This document shows, one piece after another, positions 21,770 through 62,790 of a stretch of 64,000 nt of DNA. The notes below the pieces were generated by a model that had not been told where the DNA came from, ran no database searches, and saw nothing but the letters and a program-made list of their open reading frames with translations. The number at the start of each line of letters is the position of its first letter. Positions within the stretch are counted from its first letter, which is position 1. The position numbers and the translations under genes were made by a program. The DNA is from Curvularia clavata. Its lineage: Eukaryota. Location of the stretch: NCBI GenBank assembly GCA_023920165.1, contig CP089275.1:3038001-3102000 (forward strand), read 5' to 3'.

Positions 21770-22612
21770 ATGTCAGGTATTCTTTGCGCCTGGGCTAACT
21801 TGCCCGAAGAAGTGGCAGAGTGGTTCAAAAATACCTACTTGCAAAACCAGCGTACCATAGATTGCATACACAGCATACATTGCGAGGTCACGGCCAGCGG
21901 AATGGAACACGAACCAGTCGGAAAGTTAGACGCACCATGGCCCTATCTCACAGTACACGAGGTGAAAGATGTCAAATGGGCAAACAAGCAACTTGAAGAA
22001 GCCGCCAACAACCTGCCGGAAGAGGCCAAGACTGGTCCGCTCAAGCATATCCATTTCGACGTGCGATCATATAAGGAAGTGAAGAGGTGGCAGGATGAGG
22101 ATTGGGAGGGCATGGGTGGCGATGGTAAGAAAGTCAGTTCAGACAAAGCGGGTCCTGACCTAATGCCGCTAGACATTGAGCACGTCGCGAGCATAGCAGC
22201 CATGGAATGGACCGTGGCAGCTGACAAAGAGGAAGAAGTCCTCAAATTTTACCAAGAAACCGTCGGCCCTACGATTGCCAGCTCGCCCGATGTGCTGCGT
22301 TTCCGTCTCTTCAAGATCGACTGCGCAATGACCATAGACAAGGAGCAGCAATGCAATTTCAAGGATGTACAGCAGCTTCACAAGTACTTTACTCTTGTGG
22401 AGCTTGAGGGTGAAGAGTGGCCTTGGGATGTTGTTGTCGACCTTGCCGAGGAACAAGGTTGGAAAGACTACTTTGAAACACAGCAAGTCGTGGTACGTAG
22501 TGTCAACGCAAATCATTCAGACTTCGCTAATCAAACTCAGAAATGGCAACTTAGTCATTACCTGGTCGACAAGACAGTCACCCCGCAAAAGCAAGAAGCT
22601 TCCGCTTCTTAA
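21770..22612 (+). CDS. Hypothetical protein, possibly dimeric alpha+beta barrel (EthD-like) fold
   Basis: Long ORF with likely start MSGILCAW. Two 48-nt GT-AG introns (22125-22172, 22493-22540) have branch sites. The fold guess comes only from the two-halves pattern (EWF....Y / F.RFRLF). Confidence 0.7.
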   Translation: MSGILCAWANLPEEVAEWFKNTYLQNQRTIDCIHSIHCEVTASGMEHEPVGKLDAPWPYLTVHEVKDVKWANKQLEEAANNLPEEAKTGPLKHIHFDVRSYKEVKRWQDEDWEGMGGDGKKVSSDKAGPDLMPLDIEHVASIAAMEWTVAADKEEEVLKFYQETVGPTIASSPDVLRFRLFKIDCAMTIDKEQQCNFKDVQQLHKYFTLVELEGEEWPWDVVVDLAEEQGWKDYFETQQVVVRSVNANHSDFANQTQKWQLSHYLVDKTVTPQKQEASAS

Positions 22613-25333
22613 GCAGTCTATGAGATCGAACAGGCCCCTGGATCATTGAGCTGTGCTCATATAAACTATATTCCTCCGATTGAGAGACATACACTGCTGG
22701 AGGATCTAAAGAGCTGAAGAGAAGCGCCGCTGGCTCCTGTCTACCACAAGAAGCTATTCAAGTCAGGTCGTGTTCCTTTGGGGCGTTCCAGTCCAAGTGG
22801 ACATGCGCCGGGCTCTCTCCGCAACTCATATGGAGCCACAAGGCTGGCCTCTTGAACCAGACTCCATGCAAAGATGGAAGCGATTGTGAGCCAATGCATA
22901 CCACGCCATTGCGACAGCTTCGAAATTAGACGGAGTCCACTCTAAACCCGCATCCGCATACCAGCCCGATGCCAGAGTCGTATAATGAACAATCTATTCG
23001 CGTCAGTTGCATGCTACTACTCCGCTTGACATAGTCTCCTCATTCATTCGACGGGGTCTTCTTCTCCCCCTTGAATCTCTTGAATTGAGCTGTCCACGCC
23101 TACTGATGGATACTCAACAAGCCCGCAAGCGCCTGCACATCGCCGAGTCAACCCGTGTCACCATAGTAACCTCATCATACATTTTTGGGGATGTGAGGGG
23201 AAACAATGGGGGAATGGGGGGTTGGGGTAACCAAACTAACCAGGAGCTATCTTCAAACCTGAATTAGCATTAGCACTTCCCGTAACTAAGCCCGTACTAA
23301 GCCCAACGATACCTTTGGGCCCATCTATCAGTTCATTAGTCAAAACCATGAACCCCGTCGCCACAGGCTGTGGCCAAAGCTTTTTGCGGCTGACTTGCAG
23401 ACCGCTTCTGAATCTTTTCATATCATCTCGTATACTCGCACATCTTTTCACTGTATGATTTTGGCAAGGTTCTACAAGCACCTCGTGACATCGTGCATGA
23501 TATGCAGGGTTTTTTAACCAGCGGTGCACCACGCCATCAATGCTGTTGGTGGTGCCCGAAGTTACCTTGCTCACAACATGCAGTATACTCTTTCGGTCCA
23601 TATAACGTCGATTGTGGCTTTTCAGGGTCTGATTCTACATTTTTTCTCGTGGTGCGGTGAATGGAAATAGGTCTTGCCTACATGCATAAGTCAATGGGAC
23701 CGGCCGCTAGACCGAGCACAATGCCACCGATAATGTGATAGCAGGCGAGCAGGGTGCTGGGTCTGGGGCCTGTTGAATGATTTTCTATGAGATTTTCCTT
23801 GGTGAAGCTTTAGCGTCCGTTAGCTTCTCTTTTCCCTAGCACTTCTTCCCGTCTTTTAGAGGGATACTACCTGTCGGGTACTGACAGCTGTAGCTTTTTA
23901 GTATCCAAAGATCTTTTCTGGTTAGTTTGGCCGCCTCGAGAGTCGATAGTAATATGTTTTTCTTCCTAATTAGCCATCTAAGGTGCCAGGTGTACAGTAT
24001 ACCACACAGTTGTGTTCCGGTGAGCTTTTCCGTCGATGCATCCGTGAGTATGCCGGTGACAAAATTAGCTGTCTCCGGCTCTCCTTATACGCTGCCGACA
24101 GCGCGCCCTGCCAAGTGGTTTTCGTATTCTAATTACTGGTCTTCTAGCCCTGGCTTCTGGTTTCAAACACACTCTACGTTTACTGACCGCTCTTTGTGTC
24201 GTTCGCGGGGCCTACTCCGGTGGATATGAGTTGTCTGGATCGACGCTTTCTTGTGACGTATGCTCCCTGGTTAACCCTGCATGTATTGAGGATATTGCTT
24301 TGGTTTCTAGTTTTGCAGTGGTAGGACAACTCACTCTCTATTTTGAAGAGTTCACACTCTACCCGTAGCAACTGCAGACCCGGCACATCCATATCCAGGT
24401 AACCCTGCAAATCTCTATCTTACATAAACAATATGATGATTAGCTAATAGAAAGACGTTGAGCGAGAAAATAAGCGTGATTGATTGCCATGGTTTACAAA
24501 ACATGCGCACTCTAGTGCCACGATCGGCCACACCGAGTAGGAGGGCAGTGTAGTCCGAGGTTGACAACGCTAACCCGTATGGAGGAGGTTTTGAGGGAGG
24601 TTTGGTAGGACGACGGGTCTGACTCGTGTCCAATTTTCCATCACGACGCGTACACCTGCATGTAGACGTATGTAGGCATTCACAATCTGCTGCCTACTAT
24701 ACAGCTTTTTTCAAGAGCTCGGCCCGTATAGACTCTCATTCGAAGTTATGTGAGAGAGTATCGTCGGTGCTGCGAAAGGCTAACAAGTTAATTACATAAT
24801 ATAGTCAGACTCCAAAATAATCATGATTTGGGCTTTACTGGTAACCATGATATGAAGTCTTCCTTTGATTTATAAGTCTGAGGTCCAACTCATCGCTTGA
24901 GAACATGTACTTGAAATCGTAAATTATCATCAGTAAAAAGATGTAACTATGAATTTATATTTTATTAAAGTAGGGAAATCTAAAAAGATATCAATGGAAA
25001 TATGATTCAAAATGTTACTCCATCCCCTAGCTACTAAAAGCCAAGGCAGAAACAAAGCTGTCATCGTTCGTGAGTAAATCTGGGATGTACCGTATAGCTG
25101 ATAGAGGTATTCCAGCAGATGTTCTCTGGAGAGCAAAAAATAACATCTTAGAATTTGACAACATTTCTACCCATTGCAGGGACGATCGGATATACTATAG
25201 ATCGATGTTATTGTCAAGAGCACTTACTATTGATATGCCCACCAAGGCATAACAGCTTTGTCAGAGGCAAAAAAGCAGAAGCTCCTGCCCTCAGATTTGG
25301 AAAGCAAAGACATCTCGAGGCTGACGAAACAGC

Positions 25334-25340
25334 AAAAAAA
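25334..25340 (-). terminator. RNA polymerase III oligo-T terminator of the tRNA-Pro gene
   Basis: A7 on the plus strand gives T7 on the minus strand, about 10 nt downstream of the discriminator base. Confidence 0.75.
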
Positions 25341-25349
25341 GTGATGAAT

Positions 25350-25489
25350 GGGTCTTACCGCGACTCGAACGCGGGGCCTCTCGCAAGCTGTGCTCGGGAA
25401 ATCCCTAAGCGAGAATCATACCACTAGACGGTAGGGTTGTTAGTACTCGAATGTGTTGTATTGTGATGTGGTTGCTTACCCATAAGACC
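25350..25489 (-). tRNA. tRNA-Pro-AGG: tRNA-Pro(AGG) with a canonical 17-nt intron (25386-25402) plus a 51-nt spliceosomal-like insertion in the D-stem (25429-25479)
   Basis: Minus strand reads GGTCTTATGG [51 nt] TCTAGTGGTATGATTCTCGCTTAGGG [ATTTCCCGAGCACAGCT] TGCGAGAGGCCCCGCGTTCGAGTCGCGGTAAGACCC. It has a perfect 7-bp acceptor stem GGTCTTA/TAAGACC, anticodon stem CTCGC/GCGAG, T-stem CCGCG/CGCGG with TTCGAGT loop, and C73. Functionality is unproven. Confidence 0.9.
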
Positions 25490-25527
25490 AAACACGTGAT
25501 TTGATGGAAGAACAGGGAATTCCAAAC

Positions 25528-25533
25528 TTTATA
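25528..25533 (-). promoter_or_regulatory. TATA box upstream of the tRNA-Pro gene
   Basis: TATAAA on the minus strand, 39-44 nt upstream of the mature tRNA 5' end. Confidence 0.5.
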
Positions 25534-25829
25534 TTGGTGAGTATTTCCATCTCAAGGGGCTTGGGCTGTGAAGATTTCTCGTTCGCGTGGTCGCACTAAC
25601 ATGAAGTGCCCCCACCCAACCAGTCTAACCGAACTCGAGACTCACACGCCCTATGATACCCAATCCGCGACTAGAACATTCGATATACAAGGAATGGGTG
25701 GGGTGAGTGAACCTTTGAGTGCATCAGGCCTCCCTAGCAGGCGGATATATTCGAAGCGCTTCTCTTGTCTGGATTTCTTTGGCAGTCAATTGCGCTCGAA
25801 ATCCATCTGTACACGACAAGTAAGCAAAG

Positions 25830-26764: not shown

Positions 26765-29494
26765 ATGGGCGCAACAGTAAAATCCCAGTCGACACCTGCG
26801 TCGTCCCCGCCACCAGTCACCATGGACAAAGAGAATGTGTCAAAAGCGATGCAAGAGGAAGAAGAGCGCATGAGGATACAGCGTGAGAAGGAAGACGCAA
26901 AACGGGACGCGCAGCTGGAGAAGGAGAGACAGGCGGACATCAAGAGTGGACGAGAGGTTTTGGATAAGAAGTTTCAGCAATTGGAATTCCTCATGAACAA
27001 ATCGAAGCTGTATGCGTCAGTGATGCTTCAGCAAATGCAAAAGCAAGAAGAAGAAGAGAACGCGCAGAATGAGAAGACGAACGGTGCAACTTCGACACGC
27101 GAGAAGAACGCTGAAAAGACAGCTGCCGAATCGCAGAGACGAGCCACACGCGCAAGCGCAGCAAACGGAACCGCCTCAGCAAACACAGAAGAGACAGACA
27201 CCACCCCGAACAAGGGGCGTGGGGGATCCAAGAAACAGGGCACGAAAGGCCGAGGGAGGCCAAAGAAGCAGCAATCGGACATATCTAGCTACTTTAGCAA
27301 AGAAGAGCTGAAGAAGAAGGCGGGCACTGAAGAGGCAGCAGAGGACGACAAAGATAACGTCAAGACGGGCGATATTGGAATGACGAACTTGAAGTCTGCC
27401 CGGCAGCCCAAACTTGTCACTGGAGGTACAATGCGATCATACCAGCTAGAGGGGCTTGAGTGGATGGTCTCGTTATACAACAACGGTATCAATGGTATTC
27501 TGGCTGACGAGATGGGGCTGGGAAAGACTATACAGACCATTGCCATGTTGGCGCATTTATGGGAGAACAAATCGTACGGTCCTTTTCTGATTGCGGCACC
27601 ACTCAGTACCACAAGCAACTGGGTTGCAGAATTTGAGAAGTGGACACCAAGCATCCCGGTCATGCTCTACCACGGCGATAAAAAGGAGCGCGAGAGATTG
27701 CGTAAAACTAGATTACGAAACCCTGGCACCGCTGACTTCCCTATCATGGTCACGAGCTATGAAATATGTATGAACGACCGCAAATACCTTACCAGCTTCG
27801 GATGGCAGTTCATCATAATTGACGAGGGGCATCGCATCAAGAATCTCGATTGTCGACTAATTCGCGAGCTGCAGCAGTTTCAATCTGCAAACCGTCTGCT
27901 TATTACCGGTACTCCACTACAGAACAATCTGACAGAGCTATGGTCGCTACTTCATTTCCTTCTGCCTACAGTATTCGACAAGCTGTCGACCTTTGAGAGC
28001 TGGTTCGATTTTTCTGGCCTGAAGGACAAGGCGAGCTTCGAGCAACTACTGTCCGAAGAGCGCCAGCAATATCTAGTCAAGTCATTGCATGCAGTGCTAA
28101 AGCCCTTCCTGCTACGCCGCGTTAAGACGGATGTCGAAAGCTTGATGCCCAAGAAGCGCGAATACGTTTTGTACGCACCGCTAACCTCGATGCAACGTGA
28201 GCTGTACCAAGCCATTCTCGATGGTACGAGCCGATCCTTTCTCGAGGACAAGGCAGTGGAGCGGCTCAGCATTGGTCTGAGTAGCCGAGCAGGAACACCG
28301 TTGAGCATTCGCAGTGCTAACGGTAGTAACAAGCGCAAAGCTCCAAGCGGCTTGGACACTCCTAACAAGAGCTCAAAGACCTCTCGCGCTGGCACACCTT
28401 CTTCTGTCGCATCGACTAGAAGCCGAGGCCGTCCAAAGAAAAACTACGAGGAGGTTAGTGACCGAAAGTACTTTGCCAATTTGGGTCAATCGGAATCAGA
28501 GTCAGAAGACGAGCACGATCTAAGCTCGGATGCTGAGGAAGAGAGAATACGTGCTGCTACCTTTGAGATTGCGAAACGTCAACTCATGCAGAAGAAATTG
28601 GGCAACCCTATCATGCAACTTCGGCTATGCTGTAATTCGCCTTACAACTTCTTCAACCCGTTCATCAAGGTCGATACGGATGGGACTGAAACGTTCGCTT
28701 CAGAAACAGAACCGGATGAGACAATCGTCTCAACTTCGGGCAAGATGCTCCTATTGGACTCCCTCCTTCCCGAGCTAATAGCCCGGGGCCACAAAGTCCT
28801 CATCTTCTCTCAGTTCACAACGACCCTCGACCTCCTCGGCCACTATTTGAATCTTCGATCCTGGAACTACTCTCGTATAGATGGCTCAGTTGCACAGACT
28901 GATCGTCAAGACCAAATATTAGCTTTCAACAAACCCTCATCTGCCACAAAAGAAGCAGCTGATATCTTCATCCTGTCCACGCGTGCTGGTGGCCAGGGTA
29001 TCAACCTAGCAGCAGCAGATACCGTCATCCTTTTCGACAGTGATTGGAATCCACAACAAGATCTTCAAGCCATGGATCGCGCACACCGTATCGGTCAAAC
29101 TCGCAACGTCATTGTTTACCGCTTTGCAACGCGCAATACAGTCGAGCAGAAACTCCTTGAGTCCGCCGAAGCGAAGCGCCGTCTTGAAAAACTTGTCATT
29201 CGAAAGGGCGGCGTGCGCAATGATCGCGGCGGGGCTAGAGGCGCAGAGAAAGAGCAGGAGCTTGAAGAGCTTCAAAAGCTTCTAAGAAGGAGTGATGGAG
29301 AAAAGTATGATATTAATGAGGCAAGTAAAGGTGGAAAACTGTTGGGTAAAGAGGAGCTTGAGATTCTGTTGGACAGGAGTGATGATGCATATGAGAGAGC
29401 GGAGAAGGGGTTGGATGTTGGCGGAGACGGCGCTGTTTTCCAAGCTGTGGGGAAGAGGGAAGAAGGTGCACTTATGGAGGGTTTGCGGGCGTAA
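26765..29494 (+). CDS. IRC5: SNF2-family chromatin remodeler, HELLS/LSH/DDM1 (Irc5/MUS-30) subfamily
   Basis: Intronless. N-terminal coiled coil, RQPKLVTGGTMRSYQLEGLEW, GILADEMGLGKT, DEGH box, LLITGTPLQNNL, STRAGGQGINL and QAMDRAHRIGQ. Confidence 0.9.
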   Translation: MGATVKSQSTPASSPPPVTMDKENVSKAMQEEEERMRIQREKEDAKRDAQLEKERQADIKSGREVLDKKFQQLEFLMNKSKLYASVMLQQMQKQEEEENAQNEKTNGATSTREKNAEKTAAESQRRATRASAANGTASANTEETDTTPNKGRGGSKKQGTKGRGRPKKQQSDISSYFSKEELKKKAGTEEAAEDDKDNVKTGDIGMTNLKSARQPKLVTGGTMRSYQLEGLEWMVSLYNNGINGILADEMGLGKTIQTIAMLAHLWENKSYGPFLIAAPLSTTSNWVAEFEKWTPSIPVMLYHGDKKERERLRKTRLRNPGTADFPIMVTSYEICMNDRKYLTSFGWQFIIIDEGHRIKNLDCRLIRELQQFQSANRLLITGTPLQNNLTELWSLLHFLLPTVFDKLSTFESWFDFSGLKDKASFEQLLSEERQQYLVKSLHAVLKPFLLRRVKTDVESLMPKKREYVLYAPLTSMQRELYQAILDGTSRSFLEDKAVERLSIGLSSRAGTPLSIRSANGSNKRKAPSGLDTPNKSSKTSRAGTPSSVASTRSRGRPKKNYEEVSDRKYFANLGQSESESEDEHDLSSDAEEERIRAATFEIAKRQLMQKKLGNPIMQLRLCCNSPYNFFNPFIKVDTDGTETFASETEPDETIVSTSGKMLLLDSLLPELIARGHKVLIFSQFTTTLDLLGHYLNLRSWNYSRIDGSVAQTDRQDQILAFNKPSSATKEAADIFILSTRAGGQGINLAAADTVILFDSDWNPQQDLQAMDRAHRIGQTRNVIVYRFATRNTVEQKLLESAEAKRRLEKLVIRKGGVRNDRGGARGAEKEQELEELQKLLRRSDGEKYDINEASKGGKLLGKEELEILLDRSDDAYERAEKGLDVGGDGAVFQAVGKREEGALMEGLRA

Positions 29495-59667: not shown

Positions 59668-60398
59668 CGCCTTTGGGAATTTCCGCCCATCCGTTCCTCT
59701 GTTTACAACTTACATAATACACGAGCCCTTTTTTTACGATCATTAAACTCTCCCGAGATCGTTTGCCACTCACGATGACACACACATTTGCGGGCTACGA
59801 ATTGGGAAATTTGGGAGATATCATTGCCCTCTAGCTATTGACACATAGAGAGCGCAACAGCATTGGCGTTTGTTGGCGTTAAAAGAGATTCCCTGGACCC
59901 CTTGGTTGTTACTCTTTTTTCTTTCTTTCTTTTCATCATCTGGGAAATGCTGGGAAATGCGCCCGCATGCACGTGGGAGGGGGGGAACTGGCTGGCTGGC
60001 TGGGCTATTTCGCCAACATTATCAAGTGTTTTATCATATCTTTGGGTGGATGGGGCAAGCCGGGGCTTCTTCTTCTTTCTTGTGTCTTTTTTTATGTGTG
60101 TGTGTGCCGTTTTTCTAATCCGTCAAACCTCTTTTTTTTTCACAGTGTTTTGCTCTAGTCCACACATAGCTCTTTTCTTTTCTTTTCTTCCTTTCCCTCT
60201 TAACACTCAAAGCTTTTCCTTTTCGAGTTTCTGGTTTGATAGTCGACTTGTCCGAGTTGTTGGAGCCCCGCTCTCCCTCTGTCTGTCTCTCTGTTTGATA
60301 TGGTATTGTATGTATGTTGAGGAGAAAGAAAGAAGCAAAGAAAGAAAGACAGAAAGAAGAAAAAGCTGAATTGAATGGATAATTTACCTCCCCTTCTG

Positions 60399-60510
60399 CT
60401 CCTCCTCCTCCTCCTCCTCCTCCTCCTCCTCCTCCTCCTCCTCCTCCTCCTCCTCCTCCTCCTCCTCCTCCTCCTCCTCCTCCTCATCATCATCATCATC
60501 ATCATCATCA
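60399..60510. repeat. Compound microsatellite (CCT)~28 followed by (CAT)~9
   Basis: Uninterrupted cct run at 60399-60485, directly followed by a tca run to 60510. Confidence 0.95.
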
Positions 60511-62790
60511 CTGTTGTCAACTGGAGTCTTGATGGATGTTGAATGCAATGGCACAGCTGGATAAGTGAAATCTTTGGTGGGTTTGTCTTGGGATGTTTTT
60601 CTACTTTCTTGCCTTATTTCCAATTGGTTCAATACTATTTTCTGCTTCCCTTGAACCACCCGCTTGTCTTGTACATTTTCCCTTTCGTATGCTCTTATCT
60701 CCTCTACTCAACCCTGCGAAACTACCTAGAGAGCGCAGTTTGTTTCAACTCTTTTTCCCTGCTTTCTTCTACCGTTCTGCTATGCTAAAACATCGTCTTG
60801 TGCAAGTGGGATATTTTAATTCATATGCGAGTTGGTATAGTGGGTGGTGTGGAAACGGAAGAATTATAGGAACGAGATGAGACGGAAGAGAGAGGGATGA
60901 TGTGATGGACAGATACAAGGTCAATATTGAACTGCGGAGGCGGTCTGAGAGAGCTGTTTCTATCGTGATATGGTACATATCAATATACGTATGATACAAA
61001 ATTCATATGTCCTTAACATTGTCTTACTACCCGTACTATAGTTCGTTCTATGAAAAACATGTTTAGGCACAAAAGGCCTAGTCAATGCTACTTACTCATC
61101 GCGACATCGTACCTTCATGATTCTTTCCTCTAGCCCATGCAGGTCCCCGCAAGCAAACGAAATAGGCACGTGGTGTAGGAAACGGAGTATACTTCTCATT
61201 CCGCTGAGTTGAGACAATGCACTTGCGCGGGGAGACGGGCTGCCTACCTGCATAGAGTATATGTTGGGGGTATTCAACATGGCCGAGGAAGTCAACACAA
61301 CCAAAGGGGGGAAGCGGGTTGGCGTTGAATCTGGACCTGACTCGACTCAACGTCGTTTAGCTGGTCTTGTCCTTTTTTGCTTTTTTGCGCCACGGCGGCG
61401 GCGGAGGCGGAAGAGGCGGGAGGCGGAGGAGGATTCTCGCAAACGCGAATCGTTACATCGTCAGTGGTGAGACTTCCACACTCCTTTGAAAGAGGGTGGG
61501 AGGGAAAAAAGAGGAGAGAAAGGGATGTTTCTGTGTGTATACATATCAACGGTTTTACCTACATGTTTCGATCGACTGCCTTTGTGTAGTCAATTGAACT
61601 CATCTTATGTGCAGGTTTATGTATATTGAGACAAAACGGAACTAGTCCCTCCTGAATCTTACAAAGGGTGCGGGGAGGAAGAGGGGAAGGGGGCAGTTTA
61701 GCTATGCTGTATGGGGGTAGGTGTATTGGTTGAGTAAAAGGAAATGCTTCTGATTGGGCTGTTGAACGCTCTTGATAAGGCTGATGCAGCTGTCCACGCA
61801 TGCCGCCATGGGCGCTGAAACATAGGAAAACATAGGAAGGTCAATTGGAGGGAAACAGAAGATGGAGCAAAGGGGGGAGATGACGATGTGCAAGAGAGCG
61901 AGCCTAGCGTAGGGACGAGAAGAGAGAGACGGGACTTGGCGCCAAATCCCTCTCCTACATTGTGCGCGTGGGCGGACAGCGTGGGGCGCTTGGCTTTTTG
62001 TGTATGATTTCTTTTTCTTGTGCGTGGCTGAATCGCTTTCTTGGTCTTTGCTTCATTTTTCTATTGCGTAGTTATGAATTTACATACATGCAGCATAAAT
62101 AGTATTACATAACATAATACACATAGATACCCTCGTCGCGGTCCACAAAACATCATTCGAGCGATAACGCGCTGTTTGCCACATAGGGTTTTTGTTATCA
62201 GACAATGGCAATGGCCATGGAACATAAGGCGTATGCAAGTGTTTGTATAAGCATCTCTAAGCTTTTCTTCGCGCGGCCAGGGTGTTGAGGAGCCCTGCCT
62301 GTGTATGTGGAGACCAGTCCCATTTGCTGTCCATTCAAGGGAAGGCTACGGGGAAAAGAGTGGAGAGCGTGATGTTACTGTTACGAGAGCACTTCGGACT
62401 TCCGGATGCGTGCAGCTTTTTCACCAATGTGGGCATTATTTGAGAAACTGGGACTGTGGCGAGAAATTGTGCTCAGGCTACAATGTCAATTTTGTCCGAG
62501 TATGTATATCTGGTGTGGCCGCTAATTCCTAAGCTACCTGGTTTGAAACCCATGAATGAAATCATAAAACGCCTATCCATGCCATCCGTAGCCACCAATC
62601 GCGAGTGATCTTTTTGTGATGTTGATATTGACTGTGAAAAAAAAAACGAAAAGGTATCATAACGTCGTAAACGCCCGCAGCACCTGGGCTAGTGTAGTAG
62701 AACTCCTTCGCCACAAACTACGAGGTGTAGCCCACACCCACAGCGGGTCAAGTCAGAGTTGCTTTCGCAGCTAAGTGGCCTGCGTAACAC

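Follow-up and report, generated by a model that had tools for sequence, protein, structure and literature searches.

The window, by which we mean the whole 64,000-nt stretch of Curvularia clavata DNA analyzed here, carries a tRNA-Pro(AGG) gene on the minus strand that is interrupted by two inserts. The gene is flanked by genes encoding a GNAT acetyltransferase and a SNF2-type ATPase, both on the plus strand, and the stop codon of the SNF2-like ORF lies at 29494. By its GNAT protein, the DNA belongs to Ascomycota. The features of the tRNA gene are the following.

25350-25489, minus strand: tRNA-Pro(AGG) gene with two inserts; after in silico deletion of 51 nt, ARAGORN reports a 72 nt tRNA with a 7/7 acceptor stem
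25480-25489, minus strand: exon 1, GGTCTTATGG, tRNA nt 1-10, pairing with TAAGACC at the 3′ end of the gene
25429-25479, minus strand: spliceosome-type insert of 51 nt between G10 and U11; a contig of the public run X5 omits exactly these 51 nt
25474-25479, minus strand: GTAAGC, the first bases of the insert, a GTRNGY-like hexamer resembling a 5′ splice site and the commonest 5′ hexamer in the family described below (6/28 distinct inserts)
25439-25445, minus strand: TACTAAC, a sequence motif resembling a branch site (CTRAY), with the branch A at 25440
25429-25430, minus strand: terminal CG, the acceptor that restores the tRNA, its G being 11 nt past the branch A; the sole non-AG end among 36 D-arm inserts
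25424-25428, minus strand: TCTAG, the start of the exon downstream of the insert as read from the sequence
25424-25426, minus strand: the first YAG past the branch, 16 nt away, which is tRNA U13-A14-G15 and whose use deletes UCUAG
25403-25428, minus strand: exon 2a, tRNA nt 11-37 with the anticodon AGG at 25406-25404, from the sequence and ARAGORN
25386-25402, minus strand: canonical tRNA intron of 17 nt after nt 37, called by ARAGORN and retained in the X5 contig
25350-25385, minus strand: 3′ exon with the 3′ strand of the anticodon stem, the T arm, the 3′ strand of the acceptor stem and the discriminator C, from the sequence and ARAGORN
25334-25340, minus strand: T7 run resembling a Pol III terminator, 9 nt past the tRNA end in the sequence
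25493-25535, minus strand: leader with TATAAA (25533-25528), CCATCAA (25507-25501) and CACGTG (25498-25493), conserved in orthologues

With slashes at the insert borders, the minus strand reads GGTCTTATGG / GTAAGC...GAGTACTAACAACCCTACCG / TCTAGTGG..., and the full gene reads GGTCTTATGG / GTAAGC...GAGTACTAACAACCCTACCG / TCTAGTGGTATGATTCTCGCTTAGGG / 17-nt intron / TGCGAG...TAAGACCC, followed by 9 bases and the T7 run. The border of the 51-nt insert can be slid by one base (G/G), so that GT..CG is the sole placement with a GT donor. The original prediction had placed the branch A at 25440, the CG at 25430-25429, 11 nt further on, and the UAG corresponding to U13-A14-G15 at 25426-25424, all of which agree with the sequence. 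The insert is composed of 21 A, 17 C, 8 T and 5 G, and its longest T run is 2. Its length falls within the 44-68 nt of the short mRNA introns of the window that are candidates by ORF continuity. The pattern GTAAG-N(20-40)-TACTAAC matches once on the two strands of the 64-kb window, at the insert itself, against an expectation of 0.07 from shuffled sequences. No second copy of the insert was found within the 64-kb window in a test for introners and repeats, and the region 22600-25350 contains no convincing minus-strand ORF whose UTR could own the insert as an mRNA intron. Elsewhere in the window, a GGA/TCC low-complexity stretch at 60307-60556 gives weak, sub-threshold matches to plant miRNA models that are almost certainly noise.

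In its raw form the gene escapes detection. ARAGORN, with default settings and also with introns allowed, reported no tRNA in the raw window, and Rfam gave no tRNA match there at gathering scores or at E values up to 5; under relaxed settings ARAGORN made five poor calls, one of which misread the tRNA-Pro gene as Leu(tag). When 25479-25429 (51 nt) was deleted in silico, ARAGORN recovered a tRNA-Pro(agg) of 72 nt whose acceptor stem is paired 7/7 and which has the canonical 17-nt intron, and when 56 nt were deleted, as by use of the first AG as the acceptor, it recovered none. This bears out the earlier claim that the tRNA is restored only by a junction after ..ACCG. The mature tRNA of the window scores 130 against those of the metagenome loci L009, L024 and L046, which equals its self-score. 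Thermodynamic folding leaves the G of the UAG mostly paired (probability of being unpaired 0.01-0.04) and that of the CG free about half of the time (0.55), but these folds differ from the tRNA cloverleaf, and the pairing figures for CG and UAG are therefore given no weight.

We scanned metagenome contigs for CTAAC-N(4-30)-TAGTGGTATGATTCTCGCTT, a pattern that requires neither the GT nor the AG, and obtained 78 loci. These comprise 35 with a D-arm insert, 37 ordinary tRNA-Pro genes with a chance upstream CTAAC, and 6 others that are truncated at a contig end, degenerate, or ordinary genes that had been overlooked. The D-arm inserts of the 35 fungal tRNA-Pro loci have the form GT..CTAAC..AG, span 44-57 nt, and are located at G9/G10 (3 loci), G10/U11 as in the window (11), U11/C12 (12) or G15/U16 (9). 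Deletion of the GT..AG inserts yields a tRNA in 35/35 loci, 34 of them called Pro(agg) by ARAGORN and one, L036, miscalled. Together with that of the window, there are 36 D-arm inserts with 28 distinct sequences. Their terminal dinucleotides, which the original prediction had proposed to tabulate, are GT-AG in 35 cases and GT-CG in the window alone. The 3′ end that restores the tRNA lies 10 nt past the branch A in 16 of the 36, 11 nt in 17, 12 nt in two and 13 nt in one.

The same genes contain 13 further GT..AG inserts, 5 between anticodon nt 34/35 and 8 in the T arm, and some tRNA-Pro genes thus have two mRNA-type introns in addition to the ordinary tRNA intron. The AG end is found in 48/48 other family inserts, and the CG of the window is 1/49 overall. 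In 34/36 genes all 7 acceptor-stem pairs form across the insert, and the pair types covary, indicating that these are working genes that need the insert to be removed and are under selection for joining. A T run of at least 4 is present within 30 nt downstream in 33/36 family members; runs of at least 5 occur in 0/49 tRNA-gene inserts vs 3/26 candidate mRNA introns, a difference too weak to serve as evidence. The only real tRNAs in the 600-nt flanks of the metagenome loci are ordinary ones for Ala (L010), Cys (L065) and Tyr (L076). Judged by its sequence, the 51-nt insert is one member of a family of spliceosome-type introns in fungal tRNA-Pro genes. Signals shared across the family, at a fixed spacing, speak for removal by the spliceosome in its ordinary two steps.

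The inserts at the 11 metagenome loci with the G10/U11 site can be aligned with that of the window, and inserts of this type, including the window's, are markedly rich in A+C and poor in G/T. Five of the loci (L006, L021, L045, L046 and L075) are syntenic orthologues, in which the start of the GNAT gene adjoins the tRNA gene; the GNAT proteins are 74-79% identical to that of the window over 57 aa, and the leader CCATCAAATCACGTGTT and the trailer are shared with the window. The intron at G10/U11 ends with CAG in 5/5 syntenic orthologues, and thus the CG of the window is a derived variant. Since it is rare (0/48 other inserts), it could be a recent defect. In addition, the public run X3 contains a paralogue on a 13,848-nt contig with other flanks and a related insert (12 substitutions and 1 gap over 25400-25489). 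This paralogue has a minus-strand A at 25430, which creates an AG end at the restoring site; run X4 has it at low depth. Further tRNA-Pro paralogues without a D-arm intron are present in the public runs. As other tRNA-Pro copies exist, the window copy may be dispensable.

The public runs X3, X4, X5 and X16 were compared as contigs, which drop rare variants, and stretches without cover in X5 or X16 were excluded as evidence. The orthologous X3 contig (10,273 nt) matches the window over 25400-25650 without a gap and with 6 differences, includes the insert, and has no change at 25429-25430 among the differences listed. In X4, most of the depth is likewise without a change at these positions among the differences listed. 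The X16 contig carries a diverged insert (11 substitutions and 5 gaps), again with no change at 25430 among the differences listed. The CG is thus unchanged, among the differences listed, in three further runs including the diverged X16, and would then not have arisen very recently as a lesion. Another X16 contig has a loose end, ..GAGTACTAACAACTCATCAG/CTAGTGG, that is a U11/C12-type intron. At 25291 the X5, X3 and X16 contigs all depart from the window sequence and continue with an identical stretch of 30 unplaced letters, indicating that an indel or rearrangement sets the window strain apart there, some 60 nt beyond the 3′ end of the tRNA gene.

In run X5, whose species label is that of the source, one 4342-nt contig covers 25291-25428 and 25480-25650 and joins 25428 to 25480 (ATGG/TCTAG). 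The comparison describes it as a contig that 'skips 51, ends CG..AC', that is, 51 and not 56 nt are missing. The contig retains the 17-nt tRNA intron and reads past the T7 run, and the X5 strain differs from the window at 8 positions in 309 nt. This exact skip indicates that the junction defined by the CG does occur, be it in spliced RNA or in an allele that has no intron. X5 is labelled as RNA by guesswork, no run being on record as RNA, but we consider it to be probably an RNA run. The contig is unbroken across the repeated tRNA exons, where the X3 DNA contigs stop (25376 and 25400); its far end lies about 58 nt past the SNF2-like stop codon, where the X3 contig continues for 10 kb; the longest X5 record is 19 kb vs 79-166 kb in the DNA runs; and there are eight like runs (X5-X12) from two studies. 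Against this, the intergenic DNA is covered without a gap and there is no trace of an unspliced form, and the continuous intergenic cover, the read-through of the T7 run and the missing unspliced trace would also fit DNA of an insert-less strain. Paralogue pieces are absent among the X5 records left after filtering, which is a hint at most. Whether the X5 skip reflects splicing at the CG is, in our judgment, evenly balanced.

Our preferred reading, to which we would give an even chance, is that the 51 nt are a spliceosome-type intron excised by the spliceosome at ATGG/UCUAG, with the 3′ splice site set by the distance from the branch. The ancestral intron would have had an AG at the tRNA-restoring position, about 10-11 nt past the branch A, and the lineage of the window would have acquired a C before the last G (..ACCG). 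Excision would still occur at the same phosphodiester bond: over so short a distance from branch to acceptor, the nucleotide docked by the spliceosome would be the one at the measured distance, with the terminal G kept, and scanning would not go on to the UAG, which lies 5 nt beyond and is part of the tRNA body. Two-step spliceosomal removal would presumably come first, after which the 17-nt intron would leave by the ordinary endonuclease and ligase pathway. Yeast spliceosomes can do without Prp18 and Slu7 if the 3′ splice site is close to the branch, and without Prp18 they use BG ends such as ACG, AUG and UGG, mostly upstream of the normal site (PMC10711555); a terminal G at 10-11 nt could thus dock without the A. 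As a counterpoint, there is a perfect UAG 16 nt past the branch, a distance well within the range of the candidate mRNA introns of the window. The CG and AG acceptors may compete at the window gene. Among the options offered by the original prediction, a GT-CG intron defined by distance or folding is the best supported, namely by the 10-13 nt spacing in 36/36 D-arm inserts and by the ATGG/TCTAG contig of X5, though it stops short of proof. The anatomy, the family with its AG rule, the CG left unchanged among the differences listed and the form lacking exactly 51 nt are observations; we infer the RNA nature of the skipped form, its production by the spliceosome and the role of distance in setting the site.

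The main rival to splicing set by distance is a crippled gene copy, whose AG was lost through an A-to-C change or a 1-nt indel. The spliceosome would then stall, or use the UAG 5 nt downstream to yield a tRNA without UCUAG that is discarded, while other tRNA-Pro(AGG) genes supply the cell; the X5 contig would come from a strain without the insert or with an AG. The CG occurs in 1/36 D-arm inserts and 1/49 overall where 5/5 syntenic orthologues have CAG, the UAG at 16 nt is the acceptor expected under the standard first-AG rule, and paralogues are present, one with an AG-ended intron and others without a D-arm intron; moreover, the X5 strain differs from that of the window. We nevertheless regard a crippled copy as rather unlikely, given that the exons are intact (the score of 130 against L009, L024 and L046 being the self-score), that the CG is unchanged among the differences listed in three further runs including one with a diverged intron, and that the only joined form seen has the 51-nt skip and not a 56-nt one. 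Alternatively, X5 could represent DNA or RNA of an insert-less allele produced by recent gain or precise DNA loss, in which case the contig would say nothing about the handling of the CG. Such a mere presence/absence polymorphism would account for a contig that spans the promoter and intergenic DNA without a gap and contains no unspliced k-mers, and the RNA label of X5 is only guessed. It is improbable in view of the X5 flanks, which share listed variants with the orthologous X3 contig that has the insert, and of the unbroken contig at the repeated exons; besides, precise DNA loss is easiest via a spliced RNA copy, which would need the CG junction anyway.

The remaining explanations invoke other enzymes or an error. 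The original prediction had also considered that only the first spliceosomal step is used, another nuclease and a ligase finishing the reaction. Nothing beyond the missing AG speaks for this or for the CG being an assembly error, and we consider both highly improbable: 35/35 relatives have the AG exactly at the restoring site, the signature of two-step splicing, so that the first-step option finds no support, and independent X3, X4 and X16 contigs cover 25429-25430, where the only change among those listed is that of the paralogue. Removal of the insert by the tRNA-splicing endonuclease and ligase, as for the bulge-helix-bulge (BHB) introns of archaea and Cyanidioschyzon, with GTAAGC and TACTAAC as a coincidence, would draw on a pathway that the gene already uses for its 17-nt intron, and non-canonical D-arm introns are known elsewhere (PMC3978253). 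It is barely credible, since the strict BHB fails, with 0/4 central-helix pairs in the window and 4/4 in 0/48 family inserts, and the GT, CTAAC and AG at fixed spacing in 35/35 relatives are no coincidence. The site of the insert, at nt 10/11 rather than 37/38, is also not that of a canonical tRNA-endonuclease intron.

Textbooks present tRNA introns and spliceosomal introns as two unrelated kinds, each with hosts of its own. A 2025 paper describes three intron types as unrelated and spliceosomal introns as residing in Pol II transcripts (PMC12530127). mRNA-type introns are known, however, in the fission yeast U6 snRNA gene, which is transcribed by Pol III, in the U1, U2 and U5 genes of Rhodotorula and in ascomycete rDNA, as listed in a review whose list of mRNA-type introns in ncRNA genes does not include tRNA genes (PMC5855946). 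Like these introns, the insert in the window is a short GT..branch..AG-type intron in the gene of a conserved, structured ncRNA whose folding needs its removal; as for U6 the gene is presumably of the Pol III type, and as for the rDNA introns the host is an ascomycete. Unlike them, it resides in a tRNA gene that has an ordinary tRNA intron too, and the copy in the window ends with CG. The canonical intron after nt 37 (25402-25386) shares the gene, but its position, its length of 17 nt, its signals and the enzymes involved are all different. The full-text literature searched, mostly that outside subscription journals, yielded no report of tRNA genes with spliceosomal introns. The 'split tRNA genes' of Kuraishia were considered as a precedent and rejected, as the term means ordinary introns there. 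From the sequence, what appears to be new is that the spliceosomal intron of stable RNA genes now occurs in a tRNA, with a non-AG end.

Introns in the D arm rather than at 37/38, and several introns per tRNA gene, are possible in Crenarchaeota and Cyanidioschyzon merolae (PMC3978253), as in the genes described here. Those introns are defined by the BHB and cut by the tRNA endonuclease, unlike the window insert, which has spliceosomal border signals and no BHB. As for the acceptor, TG is used in human genes (PMC2374985) in addition to the BG sites of yeast without Prp18. Like these non-AG sites, the CG of the window keeps the last G, misses the A, is close to the branch, and is located upstream of a normal YAG. 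The yeast and human sites are minor or mutant-dependent, unlike the CG of the window, which would be the productive site in apparently wild-type cells.

One tRNA gene here appears to need both splicing machineries. More broadly, and with slightly less than even confidence, we propose that an ascomycete lineage routes tRNA-Pro maturation via the spliceosome, with up to three mRNA-type introns (acceptor stem, D arm, anticodon and T arm) in addition to the ordinary one, that the acceptor is measured from the branch with the AG being dispensable, and that the GT-CG copy is spliced efficiently and precisely in wild-type cells. If a tRNA gene does depend on both machineries, intron-blind tRNA finders overlook such genes, as ARAGORN and Rfam were blank on the raw window. 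The genes would also offer a compact natural system to study how Pol III transcripts meet the spliceosome, and the CG copy beside AG orthologues and an AG paralogue would make the choice of the 3′ splice site, by sequence vs branch distance, testable.

Several further arrangements were observed in the family. L006, L021, L029, L045 and L075 carry, between anticodon nt 34/35, another insert that has the form GT..CCTAAC..YAG and spans 51-52 nt, which amounts to three introns (D-arm, anticodon and ordinary 17-nt) per 72-nt tRNA. T-arm inserts that have the form GT..CTRAY..AG, span 50-54 nt and follow linear nt 49, 53 or 59 are found in L005, L032, L008, L044, L054, L055, L062, L028, L040 and L067, and fall within or beside the B box of the tRNA-Pro genes. 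L050, the nearest relative of the window by nucleotide identity (81.6% over 163 nt), has an extra 49-nt GT..CTAAC..CAG insert between tRNA nt 2/3, and a 9-nt micro-exon precedes its U11/C12 intron. Deletion of both inserts gives the pair G1-C72, and A1.C72 results if only one is deleted. To the eye, the window intron resembles the first insert of L050 in its 5′ half and the second in its 3′ half; at the sequence level, this resemblance hints at intron duplication or recombination.

Upstream of the genes, CCATCA is present in 14/28 distinct intron-bearing regions vs 1/25 ordinary ones, and CACGTG in 9/28 vs 0/25, with a TATA-like box about 30 nt further up. The conserved leader could be a start-site or promoter module that permits initiation despite the displaced A box, or could reflect a lineage effect.
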